A stretch of 14,222 bases of DNA, taken from a bacterium ADurb.Bin157 (GTDB taxonomy: Bacteria > Muiribacteriota > Ozemobacteria > Ozemobacterales > Ozemobacteraceae). Position numbers and translations under genes: made by a program. Location: NCBI GenBank assembly GCA_002070375.1, contig MWDD01000061.1, forward strand, positions 1 to 14,222, written 5' to 3'. Positions within the stretch are counted from its first letter, which is position 1. The number at the start of each line of letters is the position of its first letter. The notes beneath the pieces were generated by a model that was not told the origin of the DNA, did not search any database, and saw only the letters and a program-made list of their open reading frames with translations. Shown one piece after another: positions 4,575 to 12,481 of the stretch.

Positions 4575-5423
4575 TTAGGCGCAATCAAGGCCGGTGATTT
4601 TTGAATATTCCCCGTCTTTTATCCAGTTGTCGATGTGTTTCGCTCTTGTAATGGTAAAGGGATGACTCATCTTGGCAGTTATGAAGGCTGTGTAAGTTTT
4701 ATTTATGAAAGATTCGTCTGAAGAGTCTTCATAAGCCCTGATCTGGCGCAAAAACTCGTTTTCATCCATGTCGTCGTAATATTTGGGTGTGGCAGCTGCA
4801 AGTTTCATAAATGCCAGATTGGCTGCTCTTTGACTTTGAACGGCGAGAAGGCCGGCTCTGTCGGCAGAAAGCTCCGATTTGCGTTCCCAATCATAGATGG
4901 CCATTTCCAGTCCGGTACTGATCATGCCCGAAAACCCAAAAGTTGCGGCAGAAGCCAGCTCAAGCACCATTTTAAAGTTGCGTGCCATGGTTTTATAGAG
5001 CACGTGGCCGCATTTAATGTGACCAAGCTCATGGGCAAATACAAACATTATTTCTGATTCGCTGAAAAGCTCTAATAGCCCTGATGTCACAACTATAAAA
5101 GGGCGAGTGTCTCCGTAAGTGTAACTGTTGGGAACAGGGTGGGTTGTAACGTATAAATCAGGTTCGGGCACATTGAGTATTTCTGCCGATTCTCTTAAAA
5201 TGCGTCGAATGTTAGGAAGCATTTTGCCGCGAACTTGAATGTTGGATGCTAAATTTGTAATTCTGAAAAATTGTTCAAAACCGATTTCCATTAGTTTTTT
5301 TACGAGGTATTCGAAGCCGGGTATGCCGCGCAGTGCTTTTATGGCTTGTCGGTCCCAGGGGTGCTGAAAATCTTTCGCTTCAAGGTCGGGGAATTTTTTG
5401 AACTCGTGTTTAGTCATATCCAT
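4575..5423 (-). CDS. M48-family Zn metallopeptidase (HtpX/Ste24-like catalytic core), apparently soluble with no TM helices.
   Basis: The 'FAHELGHIKCGH' HEXXH motif is present, with a downstream 'SELSADRAG' (third Zn-ligand Glu region) typical of M48. There are no hydrophobic segments. A strong RBS, AGGAGG, lies 8 nt upstream of the ATG and sits inside the last codons of the ankyrin gene. Confidence 0.85.
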   Translation of the reverse strand: MDMTKHEFKKFPDLEAKDFQHPWDRQAIKALRGIPGFEYLVKKLMEIGFEQFFRITNLASNIQVRGKMLPNIRRILRESAEILNVPEPDLYVTTHPVPNSYTYGDTRPFIVVTSGLLELFSESEIMFVFAHELGHIKCGHVLYKTMARNFKMVLELASAATFGFSGMISTGLEMAIYDWERKSELSADRAGLLAVQSQRAANLAFMKLAAATPKYYDDMDENEFLRQIRAYEDSSDESFINKTYTAFITAKMSHPFTITRAKHIDNWIKDGEYSKITGLDCA

Positions 5424-5996
5424 CTAGTTTCCTCCTGTTTGGGTAAGAAGTAAAATAACTTCTCGCCGGTCTTGCAGAACAGCCAAGTCTTTGGGAGTCT
5501 GCCCGACATGATTTGTGACAAAAGAGTCTGCACCTTTGTTAAGAAGTCTTTTCACTACACTTGCATGCCCTTGCTGGGATGCAATGTGTAAAGGAGTCCA
5601 ACCGTCATTGTCTTTTTCGTTAAGGTCTGCGCCAAGTTCAAGCAGTTCTGTGACAATAGGCTCGCAGCCACGGTATGCGGCCCAGTGCAAGGGTGTCCAG
5701 CCGTCTGATTCTTTTAATCTGAAATTTGCTCCCTTTTTGATAAGCAAAGAAAAGGTCGCGGGCTTTTGACGCGCTGCCGTAAGGTGAAGCGGCGTTACGT
5801 TGTCTAAGGTAAGAATGTCAACAGGAATGCCCTTTGACAACAAAAGTTCTGTAACTTCTACCATTCCCATTTTGGCGGCAACGTGAAGTAAGGTTATACC
5901 GTTTGGTTCTTTAATGTTGAAATTTTCGCCTGAATTTAGGAGCTTAAGGGCCTCTGTCGTATCGTTATTATAGACAGCGTCAAATAATTTATTCAT
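5424..5996 (-). CDS. Ankyrin-repeat protein (about 5 ANK units).
   Basis: It shows repeated 'G.TPLH.AA..G....V..LL..GA' units ('GITLLHVAAKMGMVEVTELLLSKGIP', 'NVTPLHLTAARQ', 'GWTPLHWAAYRGCEPIVTELLELGADLN', 'GWTPLHIASQQGHASVVKRLLNKGAD', 'GQTPKDLAV'). Its TAG stop (5426..5424) directly abuts the M48 ATG (5423). Confidence 0.88.
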   Translation of the reverse strand: MNKLFDAVYNNDTTEALKLLNSGENFNIKEPNGITLLHVAAKMGMVEVTELLLSKGIPVDILTLDNVTPLHLTAARQKPATFSLLIKKGANFRLKESDGWTPLHWAAYRGCEPIVTELLELGADLNEKDNDGWTPLHIASQQGHASVVKRLLNKGADSFVTNHVGQTPKDLAVLQDRREVILLLTQTGGN

Positions 5997-6086: not shown

Positions 6087-7232
6087 ATGGGATTTTGGGC
6101 TAATCAGACTCGTTCTGTTATCGAATGGAAGGACGCTTCTCCTGATATACTTATCTGGCGCTGGGACGGAACTAACGATGAATTGAAAAATGCTTCAAAA
6201 CTTATAGTCAACCCCGGACAAGCTGCAATTTTTGTATACAAAGGCGAAATCAGAGCTGTTCATGAAGATCCGGGAATGTTCGAACTTAGAACAGGTAATA
6301 TTCCCTTTTTAACAACTTTGTCAAAAATCATGCAGAATTTTACTTCTGAAAATAAAGCTAATGTTTATTTTGTTAAAATAAATCAAATGGTCAATCAAAA
6401 ATGGGGAACAAAAGCACCTGTTAAATACAATGACCCCGTTTATAAATTCCCCGTAGGAATGCGTGCATTCGGCAACTTTAGCTTCAGAATTACCGATATA
6501 AGAATGTTCTTCAACGAATATGCCGGAAATCAAGACGTTGTGCCTGTTTCTTACATAAGAAACATAATCGTCGACAGAATATTGCAGCCAATGACAGATA
6601 TTTTTGCAACAGCCGGTTTCAGCTATGCAGAAATAGACAAAAACCGCATGGAACTCTCTGCCAAAGTTCAGCAAGCTGTGGCTCCCGAGTTTTTGCCCCT
6701 TGGCTTCGAAATGTCAGATTTCAGAATAGAAAATACCGATTTTGATGAAAAAACACAAGAAAGAATCGACAAAATTTCTGATAAAATGGCTGATGTTCAC
6801 GCGGTTAACGCTATGGGCGACATAAATCAGTCATCTATGAACGCATATGCAAACGTCGAACAGCTCAGAGCTCTCAATACAGCAGCGGGCAATAACGGTG
6901 CGGCAGGCCTCGGAGTAGGTATGGGCGCAGGTATGGGTCTGGGTGCCGGCATGGGAATGATGGGCGGAATGCAGCCTGTCGCAAATAAATCAGGTGCCAC
7001 AGCCAAATGTGCTTCCTGTAACGCTTCAATGAGCGAAACAGCCAAATTCTGCCCCGAATGCGGCGCTAAGACCGGCCCGGCTACAGTGGCTTGCATTGCA
7101 TGCAAAGAACAGATTCCTCAAAACTCTAAGTTTTGCCCTGAATGCGGCAAACCTCAGTCTGTTTCATGTAAAAAATGCAACGCCCCGATCGGTTCGGCAA
7201 GATTCTGCCCCGAATGCGGCGAAGCAAACTGA
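6087..7232 (+). CDS. SPFH/band-7 (COG4260, YdjI-like stomatin/prohibitin-family) protein fused to a Gly/Met-rich low-complexity linker and three C-terminal zinc-ribbon modules.
   Basis: The N-terminal 'VIEWKDASPDILIWRWDGTNDELKNASKLIVNPGQAAIFVYKGEI' matches the characteristic start of COG4260 SPFH proteins. The linker is 'AAGNNGAAGLGVGMGAGMGLGAGMGMMGGM' (6882..6977). Three CxxC-x10-FCPECG units follow (7008..7229). RBS GGAGGG. Confidence 0.8.
   Translation: MGFWANQTRSVIEWKDASPDILIWRWDGTNDELKNASKLIVNPGQAAIFVYKGEIRAVHEDPGMFELRTGNIPFLTTLSKIMQNFTSENKANVYFVKINQMVNQKWGTKAPVKYNDPVYKFPVGMRAFGNFSFRITDIRMFFNEYAGNQDVVPVSYIRNIIVDRILQPMTDIFATAGFSYAEIDKNRMELSAKVQQAVAPEFLPLGFEMSDFRIENTDFDEKTQERIDKISDKMADVHAVNAMGDINQSSMNAYANVEQLRALNTAAGNNGAAGLGVGMGAGMGLGAGMGMMGGMQPVANKSGATAKCASCNASMSETAKFCPECGAKTGPATVACIACKEQIPQNSKFCPECGKPQSVSCKKCNAPIGSARFCPECGEAN
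7008..7229 (+). repeat. Intragenic tandem repeat encoding three zinc-ribbon units.
   Basis: An exact 19-mer TTCTGCCCCGAATGCGGCG occurs at 7047..7065 and 7203..7221. A diverged copy TTTTGCCCTGAATGCGGC is at 7131..7148. The units are spaced about 75-85 bp apart. Confidence 0.7.
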
Positions 7233-7250: not shown

Positions 7251-7284
7251 AAAACGGGTGATAAAAAATTATCACCCGTTTTTT
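7251..7284. terminator. Bidirectional rho-independent terminator between the convergent SPFH gene (+) and PIN-like gene (-).
   Basis: A perfect stem AAAACGGGTGATAA (7251..7264) pairs with TTATCACCCGTTTT (7269..7282) around a 4-nt loop AAAA. It has an A-run on the left and a T-run on the right, so it can act as a U-tract hairpin on either strand. Confidence 0.8.
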
Positions 7285-7297
7285 ATTGCCCAAAATT

Positions 7298-7843
7298 CTA
7301 ATTGTTTTTGAGATATTCTGAAAAGCTTTTGTAACCGAGTCTACGCTTTTTATTTAACATATTTTTCCATATTGTGTTTCCTTGCTCTTCGTTTATTAAA
7401 CCTGCTGTCATTGCTTCTTTTAAGATGGCTCCGGTTGTGACGTGTTTCAGGTTATATAGTTGAACATAGTCTGAGATGTCTTTGAGATTATTACTCGCAA
7501 GTATTCCGTTTCGCTCTTTTGCTAATGCTATTGCTGCAGCTTCGCCATCGCCAATAATTTTGTGGCCCGGGTCAGGATTTTTCGTCAGTTTGACAAAAAG
7601 GTCATATTCTGTACTGCCAATCATAATTGATTCTAAAGTTGCTTGACCATTCATAAAAAGTTTATCAACTTGCGCTTTCATTTTTTTTATGTGATTGAGC
7701 CCGGGATGTGAAAGTTCATTGTAGACTTGAGTCGGAATAACGATTCTTCCCGGATAAAGTTTGGCAAGAATGCTTTCATTATCAATCCATAGAAATGCTG
7801 AGAGGCAGTCGTTGTCGAAAAAAAGAGGTTCAGTCAACGACAT
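7298..7843 (-). CDS. PIN-like (DUF4411-like) protein. It is the third gene of the XRE-ImmA cassette and a putative nuclease/effector.
   Basis: The preferred start is ATG 7843..7841 ('MSLTEPLFFDND...'), preceded by AGGAAGG. It overlaps the ImmA stop by 14 nt; the ORF-track start at 7864 lacks an RBS. PIN-fold hallmarks include a beta1 acidic motif 'LFFDNDCLSAFL', 'RIVIPTQVYNELS' (conserved Glu) and 'IIGDGEAAAIALAKERNGILASNNLKD', which resembles the GEAEaIaLA...DD motif of PIN_3/DUF4411-type proteins commonly annotated next to ImmA/IrrE genes. Confidence 0.6.
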   Translation of the reverse strand: MSLTEPLFFDNDCLSAFLWIDNESILAKLYPGRIVIPTQVYNELSHPGLNHIKKMKAQVDKLFMNGQATLESIMIGSTEYDLFVKLTKNPDPGHKIIGDGEAAAIALAKERNGILASNNLKDISDYVQLYNLKHVTTGAILKEAMTAGLINEEQGNTIWKNMLNKKRRLGYKSFSEYLKNN

Positions 7844-8588
7844 CACCTTCCTCTGCTTGATCATAAACTAAGTCGGGACGAAATGCAGTCAAGAGGAGTT
7901 CTTCATATTTTCCGATAGATATTAAATCGCTTTTTAGTAATTGATCTGCTTGATTAATATAGTGACCGTATGTTTTATATTGCTCTTCTACAGGAAGCGG
8001 TCGATATAGTTCTGAGCTAAACCCCATTGTTTCAGCTCTATTTCGGACACTAATCGCTAGATATTTTTCAAAATTAGCGCGTTTCATATAAGGGCTTTCT
8101 TTAAGACGAATTACCATTGCCTGATGACTCACCCTAAAATGCTGCTCAAGCCTAATTATATCATCCAGCGAGAGTTTGTTATCTTTGTGCTTAGCTGCCA
8201 GCTGCGCGGCTCTGTAATCTAATTCGGCGTCCGGTATCAGAAAATATGAAGCGAACATATCTGCTTCTTTTTCAATGGTTTTTCCATCGCCGATTTTTTT
8301 TGCACAAACAGATACCATGTTTTGATCGTAATACAGATGATAAAACTCGTGTGCCAAAGAAAAGCGCTGGCGGCCGAGAGACATTGCTGAATTAATTGCA
8401 ATTACGCAATCATTCCTCTTTCCTTTGATGCACATGCCGCTTAGAGTATCGCCCATAGGATAATAAACTAGCGTGAGCCTTTCGATGCTTTGTGCCAGAG
8501 AAAAAATATCAACGGGTGAATGGCTGTCTTCACCCAGTTTCATTCTGAGTTGAATTGACTTAGTCATCAAGTCAGCTTTATTCATCAC
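7830..8588 (-). CDS. ImmA/IrrE-family (COG2856) Zn metallopeptidase.
   Basis: It carries the 'SLAHEFYHLYYD' HEXXH motif and a downstream 'EKEADMFASYFLIPDAEL' (third-ligand Glu), typical of ImmA/IrrE. A GTG/ATG start at 8588/8585 sits 8-11 nt after GGAGGG and overlaps the XRE stop (8578..8580). Confidence 0.88.
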   Translation of the reverse strand: MMNKADLMTKSIQLRMKLGEDSHSPVDIFSLAQSIERLTLVYYPMGDTLSGMCIKGKRNDCVIAINSAMSLGRQRFSLAHEFYHLYYDQNMVSVCAKKIGDGKTIEKEADMFASYFLIPDAELDYRAAQLAAKHKDNKLSLDDIIRLEQHFRVSHQAMVIRLKESPYMKRANFEKYLAISVRNRAETMGFSSELYRPLPVEEQYKTYGHYINQADQLLKSDLISIGKYEELLLTAFRPDLVYDQAEEGDVVD

Positions 8589-8928
8589 GCTTTTTGCCCT
8601 CCAGCAGGCTGCTCATGAATTCAGAGTTGAGCGCAATTTTATTGATAGCGCTAATGGCCTCGAGGTCGCTTGAAGACAATTCACTGCATCTGAAGGCGCA
8701 AGACAGCGGTCTCGTTGCTACGACATCATTTACAATCGCTGTTGATGAAACGCCAAAAAGCGAAGCAAGTTTATCTAACATGTCTGCTGATATGCTACGC
8801 TCCCCTTTTTCGATTTTGCTAATCAGGCTTTGATCTACACCTAAAAAATTAGCTATATTTTGCTGGTTATACCCGGCGTTATCTCTTAGCATTCGTAGAT
8901 TTTCGCTAATAATTTTATTGTCTGTCAT
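8578..8928 (-). CDS. XRE-family helix-turn-helix transcriptional regulator. It is the first gene of the cassette.
   Basis: An HTH_3-like N-terminus is present ('ISENLRMLRDNAGYNQQNIANFLGVDQSLISKIEKGERSISADMLDKLASLFGVS'). The preferred start is ATG 8928..8926 (GGAGGG about 10 nt upstream). The ORF-track TTG at 8937 has only a 2-nt spacing to the SD. A C-terminal extension of about 50 aa follows the HTH. Confidence 0.85.
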   Translation of the reverse strand: MTDNKIISENLRMLRDNAGYNQQNIANFLGVDQSLISKIEKGERSISADMLDKLASLFGVSSTAIVNDVVATRPLSCAFRCSELSSSDLEAISAINKIALNSEFMSSLLEGKKRDE

Positions 8929-8954
8929 GTCTTTCAATCCCTCCGTCCACTTTT

Positions 8955-9009
8955 ATTATATCTTAAAATTGTCATAAATATCAATTTGTAATTCAAACTT
9001 TTATGACAA
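8955..9009 (-). promoter_or_regulatory. Candidate promoter of the XRE-ImmA-PIN operon, with a 10-bp inverted-repeat operator.
   Basis: Minus strand: -35 TTGATA (plus 8984..8979), an 18-nt spacer, then -10 TATAAT (plus 8960..8955). A perfect inverted repeat TTGTCATAAA (8969..8978) / TTTATGACAA (9000..9009) has one half-site inside the spacer and the other just upstream of the -35. Confidence 0.5.
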
Positions 9010-9076: not shown

Positions 9077-9116
9077 CGGTGCGGATACCATGTAATGGTC
9101 AATAGGAGCCATGAAA

Positions 9117-9509
9117 ATGAGACTAGATGGATTTGGGATTATGGTAGATGATATGCCGAAAATGGTTCGGTTTTACAGAGATGTGCTTGGGTTTGAAATT
9201 AAAGAAGATGAGAATACGACAAATGTCTTTTTGCAAAAGGACGGAACCCTTTTTCTTTTGTATAGAAAATCAGATTTTGAAAAAATGACAGGCAGAAGTT
9301 TATCTTATGCAAAAGGGATAAATGGTCATTACGAGATAGCTTTATCAGTTTCTGATTATGAAGCAGTTGACAAAACGTTCGAATTCCTTGTGCAGGCCGG
9401 TGCTCAGCCGGTGATGCCTCCAACAACAGAACCTTGGGGACAACGCACTTGCTACATTGCTGACCCTGAAGGCAATCTGATTGAAATTGGTTCATTTAAC
9501 GTGAAATAA
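9117..9509 (+). CDS. VOC-family protein (glyoxalase / bleomycin-resistance / dioxygenase fold), small single-domain.
   Basis: 'LDGFGIMVDDMPKMVRFYRDVLGFEI' and '...HYEIALSVSDYEAVDKTFEFLVQAGAQPVMPPTTEPWGQRTCYIADPEGNLIEI' match the paired beta-alpha-beta-beta-beta VOC module pattern. The preferred start is ATG 9117 (AGGAG 8 nt upstream) rather than 9111. Confidence 0.8.
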   Translation: MRLDGFGIMVDDMPKMVRFYRDVLGFEIKEDENTTNVFLQKDGTLFLLYRKSDFEKMTGRSLSYAKGINGHYEIALSVSDYEAVDKTFEFLVQAGAQPVMPPTTEPWGQRTCYIADPEGNLIEIGSFNVK

Positions 9510-9538: not shown

Positions 9539-12481
9539 TCATTTAGCCGGATTAAGCAATTTTTGATACATTTTCATAAGTTCGGCAACACAGCTGCTTT
9601 CGGTCATTGTTTTGTAATCAAACCCGTATGCAGTCATTACTGCACAATCGTTCGCCTGATGAGCTTTTCGAAGTTCTGAGGGCATAGTGGTTTCGTCATA
9701 AAGGTCTGCAAGCGAGCTATCTGGATAAAGTGCCCTTGCATCAAGTATTGCCTGTGCTGTTTGTTCGATTTTTGCTTTTTGCGCATCTGTCGGAGTTGGC
9801 CACGGAAAATTGTTGTAAACAATATCTTTTGAGTAACGGTAATCGCTTTTAAGTCTTCCGCAAACAGCACGCATCCAAGCCATGTGTACATTTGAGGTCA
9901 GTATTCCAAAGTGATAAAGAGAGGCGTCGGTGATAATTACAGCAGAGTCTGTTGGAATAATAGATTCATCTAAAAAACCAAGCGGAATGTAACGTCTTCT
10001 TTCAGATGAAACACGGGGCACAATCACGTATTTAGCTGGATTAATCTGCTCTCTGAAAAGTGTTGGAGTCAGAGCTAATTTCTGTCTTCCGGGGTCAGGA
10101 GCTTTTAAGCGGTCTTCTTTACAAGCTTCCACTCGCTTCATCACTTTATGCATTTTTCTCAAATCAGCCGGATTTATGCCGACAAGCCAAAGACAGTATC
10201 TCTTCTTTCCATTGATGTATTCTTCTGAACCTGTGAGTCGTTTGATATATTTAGCAGCATTAGGTTCATTTTTTATAAATTCTTCGTATTCATTTGCTTC
10301 AATAATCAAATGCCCACCATCAGCCGGTCTGTTTCCTGTGATCATTGGTATGACATTTTTGCACAGTGGTTTGCTTCGGCTCTCAACAAAAACATCAGGG
10401 CCTTCAACCAAATAAGCATTTATGTTTTTAACTTCTCTAACTTTGTCTCCGTCAAACAAATAGCTTTGTTTGCAATCGTCTGTGCTACTAAAACCAACAA
10501 TTACACAGTGAACGTGGGCCTTTAAGAAGCTTTCACTATCCCACCTGAAAGTGCGATGAGCAAAGTCTATATGAATCTTAAACTGCTCAAAGAGCGGCTT
10601 CCAAAGTGCGGCAACCTGTTCGCCCTGTGTAATGGAATTCGTTGAAACAAAAGCAACTTTTGTATTTGTTCCAGCTATAAGCTGAGAAGCTTTGTAATAC
10701 CAGCCCGACACGTAGTCTATTTTGCCGGCAGTCTTATGTGCCTTGCCTTTTTCGTTTACAAAAACTGAGAGCAAATCTTCTTTCTGTTCTTTGCTTTGCA
10801 GTGAATAGCCAACAAACGGCGGGTTTCCCAAGATATAATCGTAATGATTGCCTATCAGCGATTTGACCGGCATTTCAGGCTTAACGAGCTTTTTGGTGTA
10901 TAAGTCGATTTCGTCGTAATGAACAATCGGTTCATTTACTTGATTTTCGTCTGCTTTTATTAGGTTTACTTGCTTAGCATAAACAACGGTTCTGTCAGAT
11001 TCAGATGAACCGAAAAGATAACGCCAATCAAGCTTCAGTGCGTTGCCCTCAACGATATTTGAGTAGCTTTTCAGCGGCAAATAATCAAGGTCGACCTGCA
11101 TAAGCTTTTCAGTCTCTTTCATCATCTGCGATTCGGCTATCCAAAGGGCGGTTCGGGCAACCGTAACTGCAAAATCATTAATTTCGATGCCGTAAAACTG
11201 ACCGATATTCACTAAAATCGGCTCAAACTCTACGCCCATAAGCTTTTGCCCTTTGTTTTCTTCGGCAAGAGCTTCATTTTCAAGTTTACGAAGTGAAATA
11301 AAGGTTTCGGTCAAAAAGTTTCCGCTGCCTGCAGCCGGATCTAAAAACCGCAGAGAAGCTAGTTTTTGTCGGAATTCCCGCAGTTTGATCTTTTTGTTTT
11401 TGTCTTGTTTTGTGGCTTTAATTTTTTCAAATTCGGCTTTAAGCTCATCAAAGAATAACGGGTCTATGACCTTGTGGATGTTTTCAATGCTGGTGTAGTG
11501 CATACCGCCTGTGCGCCTTGTTACAGGATTAAGAGTAGATTCAAACAATGCGCCGAAAATAGTAGGCGAAATACCCGACCAGTCAAAACGAAAACTTGCA
11601 TGATTTATCAGCTCATCGCATATTTCTTCGTTAAACTGCGGTATTTCTACTGTTTCGTCAGAAAACAAACCGCCGTTTACATATGGAAAAGCCGCTAAAT
11701 CATCGTTCATATAAAGGTCTCTGTCTTCTATCTTGGTGTCAAGCACCTTAAACAGTTTAATAAGCTCTTCTCTAACATGCTTCGGCTGAAACTGCTGCAA
11801 ATATTTTCCAAACATGTCGTGAGTATCGAAAACTCCGGCATCTTCTGCATACAGACAAAATACCAACCTAACGCATAAAATGTTTATACTGCGCAAAGTC
11901 TCATGACTTTCTGGGTTCTTGTATTGTTTTAAAATAAGGCTGTAAAGCTTGCCAACAAGATTACCCGCTTCAATAGACACCTGCATTTCACGCTGAATGT
12001 TTTCGTTACCTTTATCAACTAGAAACTGCAAACGATAATATTCTGTTGGCAAGTCTTTCAGAAAAATCTGCTCAGGTTCACCGTTTGGTTGTTCCATGTC
12101 ATAAATCAAAAACTCCGCAAAATTGCACGTTACTATCCATCTGGGTCGTAGGGAATAAGGCAGTTCTGAAGCATATCTCTTCGCCTGCTGAAAAGGCGAC
12201 AGCAAGGTGCCGTCAGACTGTCGGATGCCGTCTCTGAGGTTTTTGCCTAAACTTTTTTGCTCAATCATAACGTGTGTGTCACGTATATAAGCGTCTATAA
12301 ACGAGGTGTGGTCGAGCTTTACCTGTTCTTCAAAGTCAATAAATTTTTCGGGGTGCGGAATATTGAGCACATCACGAAGAAGCGAAAGCCAAAATGCTTG
12401 GCTCTGCCCTTTTTCATATCCTTTATCTTTCCAAAACTCCGCAAATTCTTTTGCAGAATTGCTATGCGCGTTTGAAGACAT
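9539..12481 (-). CDS. MmeI-family type IIL (IIG) restriction-modification enzyme. It is a single polypeptide with endonuclease, gamma-class N6-adenine methyltransferase and TRD regions.
   Basis: This 980-aa protein has an N-terminal 'FIDAYIRDTHVMIEQKSLGK' (D...EXK, matching the MmeI D70/E80/K82 region). Further MmeI hallmarks are 'CVRLVFCLYAEDAGVF', 'NGGLFS', 'HYTSIENIHKVIDPLF', motif I 'FLDPAAGSGNFL' and motif IV 'LGNPPFVGY'. The C-terminal 'ELRKAHQANDCAVMTAYGF...SCVAELMKMYQKL' resembles the MmeI C-terminus. RBS AGGAG lies 6 nt upstream. Confidence 0.9.
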   Translation of the reverse strand: MSSNAHSNSAKEFAEFWKDKGYEKGQSQAFWLSLLRDVLNIPHPEKFIDFEEQVKLDHTSFIDAYIRDTHVMIEQKSLGKNLRDGIRQSDGTLLSPFQQAKRYASELPYSLRPRWIVTCNFAEFLIYDMEQPNGEPEQIFLKDLPTEYYRLQFLVDKGNENIQREMQVSIEAGNLVGKLYSLILKQYKNPESHETLRSINILCVRLVFCLYAEDAGVFDTHDMFGKYLQQFQPKHVREELIKLFKVLDTKIEDRDLYMNDDLAAFPYVNGGLFSDETVEIPQFNEEICDELINHASFRFDWSGISPTIFGALFESTLNPVTRRTGGMHYTSIENIHKVIDPLFFDELKAEFEKIKATKQDKNKKIKLREFRQKLASLRFLDPAAGSGNFLTETFISLRKLENEALAEENKGQKLMGVEFEPILVNIGQFYGIEINDFAVTVARTALWIAESQMMKETEKLMQVDLDYLPLKSYSNIVEGNALKLDWRYLFGSSESDRTVVYAKQVNLIKADENQVNEPIVHYDEIDLYTKKLVKPEMPVKSLIGNHYDYILGNPPFVGYSLQSKEQKEDLLSVFVNEKGKAHKTAGKIDYVSGWYYKASQLIAGTNTKVAFVSTNSITQGEQVAALWKPLFEQFKIHIDFAHRTFRWDSESFLKAHVHCVIVGFSSTDDCKQSYLFDGDKVREVKNINAYLVEGPDVFVESRSKPLCKNVIPMITGNRPADGGHLIIEANEYEEFIKNEPNAAKYIKRLTGSEEYINGKKRYCLWLVGINPADLRKMHKVMKRVEACKEDRLKAPDPGRQKLALTPTLFREQINPAKYVIVPRVSSERRRYIPLGFLDESIIPTDSAVIITDASLYHFGILTSNVHMAWMRAVCGRLKSDYRYSKDIVYNNFPWPTPTDAQKAKIEQTAQAILDARALYPDSSLADLYDETTMPSELRKAHQANDCAVMTAYGFDYKTMTESSCVAELMKMYQKLLNPAK

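Follow-up and report, generated by a model that had tools for sequence, protein, structure and literature searches.

A compact XRE–ImmA–PIN operon from an Ozemobacteraceae genome as a possible protease-gated switch for a PIN nuclease

Cassettes in which an Xre-type regulator and a COG2856 peptidase accompany a toxin have been flagged as three-component systems since 2009, and CBASS, among other defences, is now known to be gated by the regulator halves of such cassettes. The combination of HTH, DUF955 (COG2856) and PIN domains was predicted to constitute a three-component toxin–antitoxin system (Makarova 2009, PMC2701414; Matelska 2017, PMC5499597); the later study explicitly names COG2405 together with HTH and DUF955, and includes COG2405/DUF3368 PIN proteins among the partners. 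The same architecture has also been described computationally by Ernits 2023 (PMC10440598). A first-pass annotation of the locus reported here had stated that no characterisation of such a trio as a unit was known to it. This stands for experiments, none of which was found in the literature for the XRE–ImmA–PIN trio, but not for computational description, which is available from 2009, 2017 and 2023.

Several described systems share parts of this architecture. CapH and CapP, a separate small HTH repressor and an M78 peptidase, regulate CBASS and other defence operons (Lau 2022, 10.1101/2022.04.27.489752; Calloji 2026, PMC13228613), and the pair is usually divergent from the operon it controls. 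In ImmR/ImmA of ICEBs1 and IrrE/DdrO of Deinococcus, a damage signal leads an M78 peptidase to disable an XRE repressor by cutting it at a specific site, and the targets of control are an integrative element and a chromosomal DNA-repair regulon, respectively. In Rosmer systems, as summarised by Ernits 2023 (PMC10440598), RmrA, a fused HTH–ImmA protein of ~380 aa, counteracts a variety of RmrT toxins and provides defence against phages; most of the RmrT toxins that were tested are membrane-active proteins. PADLOC holds PDC-M69 (A+B) and PDC-S70 as candidates (Payne 2024, 10.1101/2024.01.29.577857). PDC-M69 is defined without a third gene and is a candidate only. PDC-S70 is described as a PIN nuclease, one member of which reduced plating of T4, T5 and T7, with a 100- to 1000-fold EOP reduction in E. 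coli (PMC12881386).

The window analysed here, i.e., the whole stretch of 14,222 nucleotides of contig MWDD01000061.1 from the bacterium ADurb.Bin157 (Ozemobacteraceae), carries on its minus strand three overlapping genes in the order XRE, ImmA, PIN, with a strong promoter at the front and a terminator at the end. The features are as follows, in the direction of transcription.

9000..9009, minus strand: distal operator arm, TTGTCATAAA (minus-strand reading), 15 nt upstream of the −35 box
8979..8984, minus strand: −35 hexamer TTGATA from the promoter scan, between the two operator arms
8969..8978, minus strand: proximal operator arm, TTTATGACAA, adjoining the −35 box and occupying the promoter spacer
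8955..8960, minus strand: −10 hexamer TATAAT from the promoter scan
8578..8928, minus strand: XRE-family repressor, HTH plus a C-terminal extension of ~45 aa, with an HTH_3 match
7830..8585, minus strand: ImmA/IrrE (M78) zinc metallopeptidase of 251 aa, with HExxH, Glu ligand, invariant Cys and a helical C-terminal domain
7298..7843, minus strand: PIN-fold nuclease-like protein of 181 aa, the predicted effector, COG2405/DUF3368-like and PDC-S70-like
7251..7282, no strand assigned: intrinsic terminator hairpin with a 14-bp stem, 16 nt past the PIN stop codon

The open reading frames, both stop/start overlaps and the upstream GAGGAAGG described in the first-pass annotation were all found. The XRE stop codon TAA (8580-8578) overlaps the ImmA start (GTG 8588 or ATG 8585), the ImmA stop codon TGA (7832-7830) overlaps the PIN ATG (7843) with an overlap of 14 nt, and GAGGAAGG stands directly 5′ of that ATG. 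Translation of the overlapping genes is probably coupled. The XRE start is to be moved from the TTG at 8937, where it had been placed, to the ATG at 8928, on which homologue alignment and public gene calls concur and which gives a product of 116 aa. ImmA is called from ATG 8585, and the mechanical ORF of the third gene begins at 7864, with homologues beginning at ATG 7843. As sequence and comparison indicate, a single sigma-70-type promoter is predicted to drive XRE, ImmA and PIN, and the operon ends at the terminator. The terminator hairpin is also positioned to serve a convergent SPFH gene. A terminator-like hairpin in the 5′ end of ImmA (8536-8513) was considered as a conserved attenuator and rejected: scored against synonymous-recoding controls, it had a mean z of −0.13 over 67 distinct loci, and the stem is a by-product of conserved G-E...S-P codons.

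The promoter has 11 of 12 hexamer matches and an 18-nt spacer, and the arms at 9000-9009 and 8969-8978 form a perfect 10-nt inverted repeat. Among 69 distinct upstream regions from homologous loci, 64 contain the pattern GTCATW-N26-WATGAC, compared with 3 of 7,179 background windows, and 57 of those 64 have an inner gap of 26 nt. In the homologous loci, the proximal arm is likewise placed as in the window with respect to TTGAnn and TATAAT. These features point to a putative operator over the promoter, consisting of a conserved inverted repeat of fixed spacing that brackets the −35 box. The pattern occurs once in the window (0.01 expected); no second operator was found in the window, and neither a second operator nor a divergent regulated promoter is conserved across the loci. 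The single half-site at 12097-12104 is no more than chance would give, and a regulon reading of the window was rejected.

Conservation of the trio was assessed in 80 related genome loci, one of which is truncated by a contig end. In all of the other 79, the order XRE–ImmA–PIN is kept and the PIN gene never occurs without both partners; adjacent genes overlap or are separated by at most 5 nt in nearly all related loci, and XRE and ImmA are separate genes in all of them. Genomic copies number roughly 286 or more. The hosts include Bacillota, Bacteroidota, Lentisphaeria, Spirochaetota, Synergistota, Caldisericota and Atribacterota, among others. In contrast to the trio, the flanking genes vary. 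When 937 flanking ORFs were clustered all against all and the 117 nearest neighbours were scanned with Pfam and PADLOC, neither a fourth conserved gene nor a conserved integrase emerged; the nearest neighbours span 126 Pfam families, and the largest flanking-ORF clusters stem from one ICE-like element common to 11 loci. Defence or candidate-defence genes make up about 14 of these 117 neighbours, a resolvase is found in 3, and phage integrase is absent among the 25 most frequent families listed. One identical PIN protein lies beside a serine-recombinase element in some contigs and beside McrBC and type I RM genes in others. In the window, an MmeI-type IIG RM gene is located ~600 bp upstream of the operon, a divergent glyoxalase/bleomycin-resistance-like gene adjoins it, and there are no mobility genes, with no integrase within 14 kb.

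Phage or plasmid carriage was considered and rejected: relatives were found in 5 of 2.9 million viral contigs (4 intact copies), in 1 of 50,697 phage records, as a weak match, and in 1 of 72,556 plasmid records, which is a mis-sized ‘plasmid’ record. The first-pass annotation had proposed that conservation of the neighbourhood be checked, and that finding the trio only in immunity regions of prophages or ICEs beside an integrase would speak against a self-contained unit. As the trio is not integrase-linked, it is not confined to such regions, and its constancy amid changing neighbours bears out the self-contained unit that had been proposed. The trio is thus a real conserved unit, beyond chance, and, judged from its distribution, a horizontally mobile one: the patchy spread over phyla and the occurrence of identical proteins in different contexts indicate that it moves horizontally and does not belong to a core stress regulon. 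It fits the predicted HTH + DUF955/COG2856 + PIN system in lying on one strand, in one predicted operon, and in being conserved across genomes and mobile. It also has the same three domains, co-directional and co-transcribed, as the systems of Makarova and Matelska, and would follow the same logic in which the protease cleaves Xre as repressor or antitoxin. Many of their examples, however, have the HTH fused to the peptidase, whereas XRE and ImmA here are separate proteins, and those reports are gene-neighbourhood predictions without operator, cleavage site, structure or experiment. The system is real and its kind is already predicted, not new; what the present analysis adds is the putative operator, a candidate cut motif and four acidic PIN positions.

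The XRE product matches HTH_3 (E = 1.6e-13) and the PADLOC models capH (E = 5.9e-12) and PDC-M69A (E = 1.2e-7). The C-terminal extension opens with the motif A-[F/L]-R (A78-F79-R80, numbered from ATG 8928), in which R is conserved in 79/79 homologues, A in 76/79 and F/L in 78/79. DdrO is cut at L106|R107, which the motif matches. The CapH cut site F82|R83 is matched by the motif as well (10.1101/2022.04.27.489752). When the extension alone was compared with PDB (phmmer) and PADLOC, no similarity to CapH, DdrO or any solved structure was found; as the isolated segment lacks detectable similarity to the CapH C-terminal domain, the full-length capH match may rest mainly on the HTH.

The ImmA product matches Peptidase_M78 (E = 1.9e-16) and the capP model, and its best PADLOC match is PDC-M69B (E = 3e-25). 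It has a CapP/IrrE-like peptidase and HTH-like core with an HExxH...E zinc site, and its alignment with CapP covers 159 of 251 residues. The HEFYH motif and downstream Glu that the first-pass annotation had recognised are invariant in 80/80 homologues (H80, E81, H84 and E106 in GTG numbering). A Cys (C95) located 15 residues past the first His is likewise invariant (80/80) and aligns to the loop Cys of Thauera CapP, i.e., the cysteine-switch position. Whereas an acidic pair follows the switch Cys in CapP, this pair is absent from the switch loop of the window ImmA, in which basic residues follow. Also, in CapP and IrrE, a GAF domain forms half of the ssDNA groove, whereas no GAF match was found in the window ImmA, which has a small helical domain at residues ~165 to 236. 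This non-GAF C-terminal domain is highly conserved and ends in an invariant A-F-R-x-D-L-V-Y tail.

For the third protein, the PIN fold (Rossmann-like, alpha/beta/alpha) was assigned by fold search, and the family has no sequence-level match to solved PIN structures. The motifs FFDND (D10, D12) and VYNEL (E43), both noted at first reading, are present and are invariant in 81/81 sequences, as are GDGEAAA (E101), S117-N118-N119 and D122. D10, E43, E101 and D122 represent the four acidic active-site positions of PIN proteins, for which a check had been proposed, and occur at the expected secondary-structure places: past strand 1, in helix 2/3, at the N-terminus of the helix that follows strand 3, and in the T/S-N-x-x-D motif past strand 4. 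The earlier DUF4411-type label has to be dropped, since PF14367 was not matched by the window protein at E up to 10 or by 45 family members at E up to 1. The precomputed annotation is PF11848/DUF3368, i.e., the COG2405 group, and PDC-S70 is matched weakly by the window protein (E = 2.5e-7, 28.9 bits) and by 45/45 aligned relatives (E down to 4.5e-10), suggesting a protein of COG2405/DUF3368 and PDC-S70 type. PDC-S70 is, however, a single-gene, largely archaeal candidate, and the tested gene was stand-alone, whereas this PIN is never alone. The trio also differs from VapBC type II systems: the PIN protein carries a helical C-terminal extension of ~45 aa, and there is no small RHH, AbrB or Phd antitoxin, with two upstream regulator genes rather than one.

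These features can be combined into a model in which the self-contained mobile operon is a protease-gated switch for the PIN nuclease, triggered by stress or phage, and we put its chance at about even. XRE, as a dimer or higher oligomer joined via its C-terminal extension, would bind both operator arms and repress its own operon, so that all three products would be kept low. ImmA would be latent, its zinc being capped by the invariant Cys in the manner of CapP, until stress or infection supplied an activating signal; by analogy with CapP, IrrE and ImmA, this could be DNA damage or ssDNA, although the signal may differ because ImmA lacks the GAF sensor domain. Active ImmA would then cut XRE at A-[F/L]|R, between the HTH and the oligomerisation region, causing collapse of repression and induction of the operon, including more protease, and accumulation of the PIN nuclease. 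Cleavage of RNA, or possibly DNA, by PIN would then arrest growth, abort the infection or damage the invader directly.

The protease-gated switch is suggested by the operon anatomy, the conservation of the trio, the putative operator, the A-[F/L]-R motif and the acidic PIN residues, together with the lack of a conserved neighbour, the identical PIN in different contexts, the defence neighbours and the PDC-S70 EOP result. The proposal that XRE represses and ImmA cleaves, already made in the first-pass annotation, gains from the conserved putative operator, the candidate cut motif and the CapP-like ImmA with its invariant Cys. Against the switch count the normally divergent arrangement of CapH/CapP, whose counterparts here share strand, promoter and overlapping frames with a single PIN effector, unlike the operons controlled by CapH/CapP; the GAF-less ImmA with its basic switch loop; the XRE C-terminal region unlike that of CapH; and the weakness of the match to PDC-S70, together with the stand-alone nature of the tested PDC-S70 gene. 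In addition, since PIN shares an operon with its regulators, silencing of transcription may not suffice as an explanation: basal expression would yield PIN along with XRE and ImmA, and a gate acting on transcription alone would work only if small amounts of PIN did no harm.

Alternatively, the trio could be a tripartite Rosmer-type toxin–antitoxin system with a split antitoxin, which we hold possible but somewhat doubtful. ImmA, by binding or proteolysis, and/or XRE would then neutralise the PIN protein, XRE autoregulation would set the dose only, and phage or stress would disturb the antitoxin and not transcription. In its favour, XRE and ImmA each match only their own half, N-terminal and C-terminal, respectively, of many PADLOC RmrA models; an HTH and ImmA-type peptidase with a swappable toxin is common to both systems, and pairings of ImmA with PIN are noted in NetFlax (PMC10440598). 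The overlapping coupled genes would provide fixed stoichiometry, as in toxin–antitoxin complexes, PIN is accompanied by both partners in 79/79 loci, and the conserved C-terminal domain and tail of ImmA could be a partner-binding surface. However, RmrA is defined as a fusion, whereas the antitoxin-like part here is split into proteins of 116 and 251 aa, and the candidate toxin is a PIN protein rather than a membrane-active one; regulated XRE cleavage explains the invariant Cys and A-[F/L]-R more simply, and near absence from plasmids is not typical of an addiction module. The loss of GAF, which supplies half of the DNA groove in CapP and IrrE, together with an ImmA tail whose A-F-R copies the putative XRE cut site, leads to a further reading, which seems rather unlikely: a self-amplifying one-shot switch, in which ImmA would sense something besides ssDNA and the tail would be a pseudo-substrate lock or self-processing site, so that activation would follow a protease cascade, possibly gated by PIN or by what PIN produces, and not the mechanism of CapP.

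The chromosomal context of the window, integrase-free across 14 kb, and the adjoining glyoxalase/bleomycin-resistance-like gene would suit an IrrE/DdrO-like stress pair, with PIN as a housekeeping-type enzyme that processes RNA or DNA and is induced once DNA is damaged, neither toxin nor defence. This is improbable, as the only operator in the window is at the operon's own promoter, arguing against a regulon, and as the neighbours vary and the patchy phyletic spread includes identical proteins in differing contexts. Still less probable is that the operon serves an integrative element or prophage as its immunity or regulatory region and governs its life cycle, as ImmR/ImmA does in ICEBs1, with PIN as an accessory. 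In ICEBs1, immR-immA-int is a three-gene operon with the repressor first, some of the present loci have serine recombinases, transposases, ParE, HTH_17, DUF4314 and YodL as neighbours, all of them usual cargo of ICEs, and intact copies occur in viral contigs. Nevertheless, the window is devoid of mobility genes, resolvase and integrase are rare or absent among the neighbours as counted above, relatives are scarce in viral, phage and plasmid records, and neither a second operator nor a divergent regulated promoter is conserved. The trio thus differs from ImmR/ImmA and IrrE/DdrO in having no conserved integrase and no regulon.

Should the outcome prove ordinary, the trio would be one more regulated PIN toxin in the catalogue of defence and toxin–antitoxin systems. 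The trio is an unusually clean minimal case of the Xre–COG2856–toxin type, with three small genes, one promoter and no further partners, and it offers handles for experiments: the putative operator, which is defined in sequence, the bond in XRE that ImmA may cut, the Cys that may act as a switch, and four putative catalytic residues. It bears on whether such cassettes act as a transcriptional switch or as a true toxin–antitoxin complex, and on what a GAF-less M78 peptidase senses.

The three minus-strand genes at 7298-8937, encoding an XRE repressor, an ImmA peptidase (M78 zinc peptidase) and a PIN-fold protein, are a conserved, autonomous and mobile unit. Their true starts, which were set by homologue alignments and public gene calls, lie inside the listed open reading frames (ORFs):

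8578-8937, minus strand: XRE ORF; true start ATG 8928, 116 aa
7830-8588, minus strand: ImmA ORF; true start ATG 8585, 251 aa
7298-7864, minus strand: PIN ORF; true start ATG 7843, 181 aa

The contig is also present in public assemblies (e.g., GCA_022704895.1). The overlapping stop and start codons described in the first-pass annotation are seen on reading the minus strand: GTGATGAATAA contains the XRE stop TAA (8580-8578) as well as the ImmA GTG (8588) and ATG (8585), and the ImmA stop TGA (7832-7830) lies 11-13 nt past the PIN ATG (7843), directly upstream of which is GAGGAAGG. Pfam identifies HTH_3 in gene 1 (E = 1.6e-13) and Peptidase_M78 in gene 2 (E = 1.9e-16); a Pfam scan of the gene 3 protein returned no match.

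Scanning one genome per species by pattern, we found 286 loci that encode a relative, the best 80 of which were fetched. ImmA and XRE homologues lie immediately upstream of PIN in the same order wherever the upstream sequence is intact (79 of 79 loci), and their identities across loci track that of PIN. Consecutive genes of the trio are nearly always separated by -14 to +5 nt, and 58 loci show an 8-nt overlap of ImmA and PIN. Judging from the conserved PIN M-T-E and the ImmA terminus (Asp-stop), the overlapping octamer would be ATGACTGA, and its sharing would account for the Asp with which ImmA invariably ends. The hosts are mostly Bacillota; among the others are Bacteroidaceae, Lentisphaeria, Spirochaetales, Synergistota, Deltaproteobacteria, Caldisericota, Atribacterota, Mollicutes and a Melainabacteria-like MAG.

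Alignment of 81 PIN sequences bears out the assignment of the third gene as PIN-like with acidic residues. D10 (end of strand 1, FFDxD), D12, E43 (helix, VYxEL), E101 (start of the GEAAA helix), T137 and the S117-N118-N119-x-x-D122 segment after strand 4, which corresponds to the VapC-like T/S-N-x-x-D motif, are invariant, and D60 and T136 are each conserved in 79 of the 81. All four canonical acidic PIN positions are thus occupied and under strict selection. The DUF4411 label first given to the protein has to be dropped, as neither it nor any of 45 relatives matches that family. Precomputed tables list PF11848/DUF3368, which Matelska et al. (2017; PMC5499597) equate with COG2405, for almost every PIN homologue, but PF11848 was absent from a live hmmscan of 45 family members against the current Pfam copy, in which 7/45 gave a weak PF01850 PIN match; this discrepancy may reflect a different Pfam release or model. 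All 45 relatives match the PADLOC candidate models PDC-S70 (best E = 4.5e-10), as does the PIN protein of the window (E = 2.5e-7). A PIN profile retrieved 867 clusters at E<=1e-3, 138 of them at E<=1e-30, from 1.84 billion cluster representatives; the best 150 of the 867 are all small proteins (100-221 aa). A sequence search of the PDB with this profile found nothing meaningful.

The following elements bound the cassette:

9009-9000, minus strand: distal operator arm TTGTCATAAA, half of a perfect 10-nt inverted repeat
8984-8979, minus strand: -35 hexamer TTGATA (sigma-70-type promoter scan; 11/12 matches together with the -10)
8978-8969, minus strand: proximal operator arm TTTATGACAA, abutting the -35 box and occupying the promoter spacer
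8960-8955, minus strand: -10 hexamer TATAAT, 18-nt spacer from the -35, upstream of XRE
7282-7251: terminator with a 14-bp stem, after the PIN stop

The promoter, the terminator and the GGAGGG motifs ahead of the XRE and ImmA starts argue that XRE, ImmA and PIN form one transcription unit. The hairpin at 7251-7282 is flanked by A and T runs and could end the cassette transcript and the convergent SPFH transcript alike. A further terminator-like hairpin with a T run (8513-8536, minus strand) lies inside ImmA, ~50 nt from the start of its coding region. As a candidate attenuator, the ImmA 5' hairpin was rejected: across 67 loci there was no excess structure over synonymous recodings, and it is not under selection.

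In the window the -35 hexamer is thus bracketed by the perfect inverted repeat, a layout found again ahead of XRE in homologous loci, where the intervening sequence differs. Of 69 distinct upstream regions, 64 contain GTCATW-N(25-27)-WATGAC, with an inner gap of 26 nt in 57 of these 64; the background in 130-nt windows from other parts of the homologous loci is 3 of 7,179, and the window itself has one occurrence (0.01 expected). About three helical turns separate the half-sites, which lie on the same DNA face, a spacing that fits an XRE dimer or tetramer built via the C-terminal extension, as in CapH, the CBASS-linked repressor. This is comparative evidence for autorepression of the three-gene operon by XRE, with no other target in the window.

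XRE matches the PADLOC model PDC-M69A and, over residues 7-100, capH (E = 5.9e-12). Its C-terminal extension opens with A-[F/L]-R (R in 79/79, A in 76/79, F/L in 78/79). DdrO is reportedly cleaved between L and R (Ludanyi 2014). The XRE motif resembles the cut site of CapH: according to the Lau paper, which also cites the IrrE/DdrO system, the F82-R83 bond in the opening helix of the CapH dimerisation domain is cleaved, and R83A blocks the reaction (10.1101/2022.04.27.489752). Searches with the XRE extension alone detected no similarity to CapH or PDB entries, so the XRE cleavage site is predicted solely from the motif and its position.

ImmA was modelled from a 42-sequence alignment (pLDDT 86.5). 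With GTG 8588 as residue 1, H80, E81, H84, C95, E106 and D110 are invariant in 80/80 sequences, and C95 pairs in a phmmer alignment with the loop cysteine of the CapP peptidase, which caps the zinc and is displaced on ssDNA binding. This latency mechanism is probably shared. The activating signal may differ from that of CapP: the C-terminal ~90 residues of ImmA lack a GAF match, and the residues following the cysteine are basic, whereas CapP has an acidic pair there through which DNA binding is linked to movement of the loop. The ImmA tail (7830-7880; residues 235-252 in the same GTG 8588 numbering) contains an invariant A-F-R-x-D-L-V-Y (R237, D239 and V241 in 80/80) at the edge of a low-confidence model segment (residues 237-251, pLDDT <50). 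This tail motif echoes A-[F/L]-R of XRE, and could be a pseudo-substrate, a self-processing site or chance.

The cassette is flanked in the window by the following genes, none of the genes in the window being a mobility gene:

9539-12481, minus strand: full-length type IIG restriction-modification gene of the MmeI family; 980-aa product with all five MmeI domains
9111-9509, plus strand: glyoxalase/bleomycin-resistance (Ble)-like gene, divergent from the XRE promoter region
6087-7232, plus strand: SPFH/Band-7 gene with several C-terminal zinc ribbons, convergent on the cassette

The MmeI-family gene (PADLOC REase_MTase_IIG, E = 0) shares the strand of the cassette and lies ~600 bp upstream of it, and the stretch may therefore be a small defence islet. 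XRE and the Ble-like gene share the 182-bp intergenic space holding the operator; their co-regulation is unlikely because the upstream neighbour is unconserved in other loci. Elsewhere in the window (4575-5996, minus strand), an M48 peptidase gene directly follows a 190-aa ankyrin-repeat gene with adjacent stop and start, an unusual bacterial pairing.

Clustering of 937 flanking ORFs gave no family present in more than 13 loci, and the top clusters derive from a single ICE-like element common to 11 loci (ParE, HTH_17, DUF4314, YodL, D12 methylase and DUF4011 helicase). Near-identical cassettes lie within one and the same ICE-like cargo region, with a ParE toxin, HTH_17, DUF4314, a YodL-like protein and D12 adenine methylase (L043-L047, L050, L052, L056-L058, L061 and L067; locus coordinates ~5000-16000), and their occurrence in different Clostridia families points to recent horizontal spread. 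In four loci this cargo includes a 1,582-aa DUF4011/AAA_11/AAA_12 helicase with a REase_MTES_1575 domain. The 117 nearest neighbours represent 126 Pfam families, the commonest being DUF4143/AAA_14 (5 times) and Resolvase (3 times), and ~14 match defence or candidate-defence models. One identical PIN protein (P0027) has a serine-recombinase element as its neighbour on some contigs; on others it adjoins McrBC and type I RM genes. The family occurs in 5 of 2.9 million viral contigs (PIN intact in 4), as one weak match in 50,697 phage records and as one match in 72,556 plasmid records, actually a 2.6-Mb replicon. One degenerate viral-contig copy (L097, 3374-3625) keeps XRE and ImmA with a PIN match limited to residues 95-178; in another (L095, 5254-6505) the ImmA and PIN matches are split, apparently by frameshift, and XRE is unmatched. 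Both are consistent with occasional effector decay. Given the variable neighbours and the rarity in mobile-element collections, the trio is not confined to the integrase-linked immunity region of such elements, and a role in element immunity is improbable.

Sequence and comparison thus show a single operon with a conserved operator over its promoter. Both enzymes keep their catalytic apparatus, and the cassette is strictly co-inherited, horizontally mobile and occasionally resident in defence islands. By analogy with CapH/CapP, IrrE/DdrO and ImmR/ImmA, XRE would keep the operon repressed until latent ImmA, on a damage or infection signal, cleaves it between [F/L] and R of A-[F/L]-R; the operon would then be induced, extra protease included, giving positive feedback, and the PIN nuclease would act after this induction. 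We give this transcriptional switch about an even chance. The main alternative, which we rate as less likely, is protein-level neutralisation of PIN by ImmA and/or XRE, as in the Rosmer toxin-antitoxin system, in which RmrA, an HTH-ImmA fusion, neutralises varied toxins and defends against phage; NetFlax also noted ImmA-PIN pairings (PMC10440598). The same-operon layout and coupled translation suit such neutralisation well, and it can coexist with the transcriptional switch. That the cassette serves a stress regulon we hold to be quite unlikely. The gene arrangement first described for this locus stands, and its reading as a toxin or abortive-infection module is partly supported.

The architecture was predicted to be "a novel, three-component TAS" (Makarova et al., 2009; PMC2701414), and COG2405, DUF4411 and other PINs have been listed as co-transcribed with HTH and DUF955 (Matelska et al., 2017; PMC5499597). 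PDC-M69 and PDC-S70 are already PADLOC candidates; PDC-S70 has been described as a PIN nuclease, and one member lowers plating of T7 and T4 ~100-fold and of T5 ~1000-fold (PMC12881386). Given the earlier computational descriptions, the trio belongs to a known, computationally defined kind, and a literature search found no experiment on the XRE-ImmA-PIN trio. The novelty is modest: a putative operator with fixed geometry, a candidate scissile motif, a predicted GAF-less cysteine switch and evidence of cassette autonomy are added here. With these, a prediction some fifteen years old is now directly testable via defined mutations.
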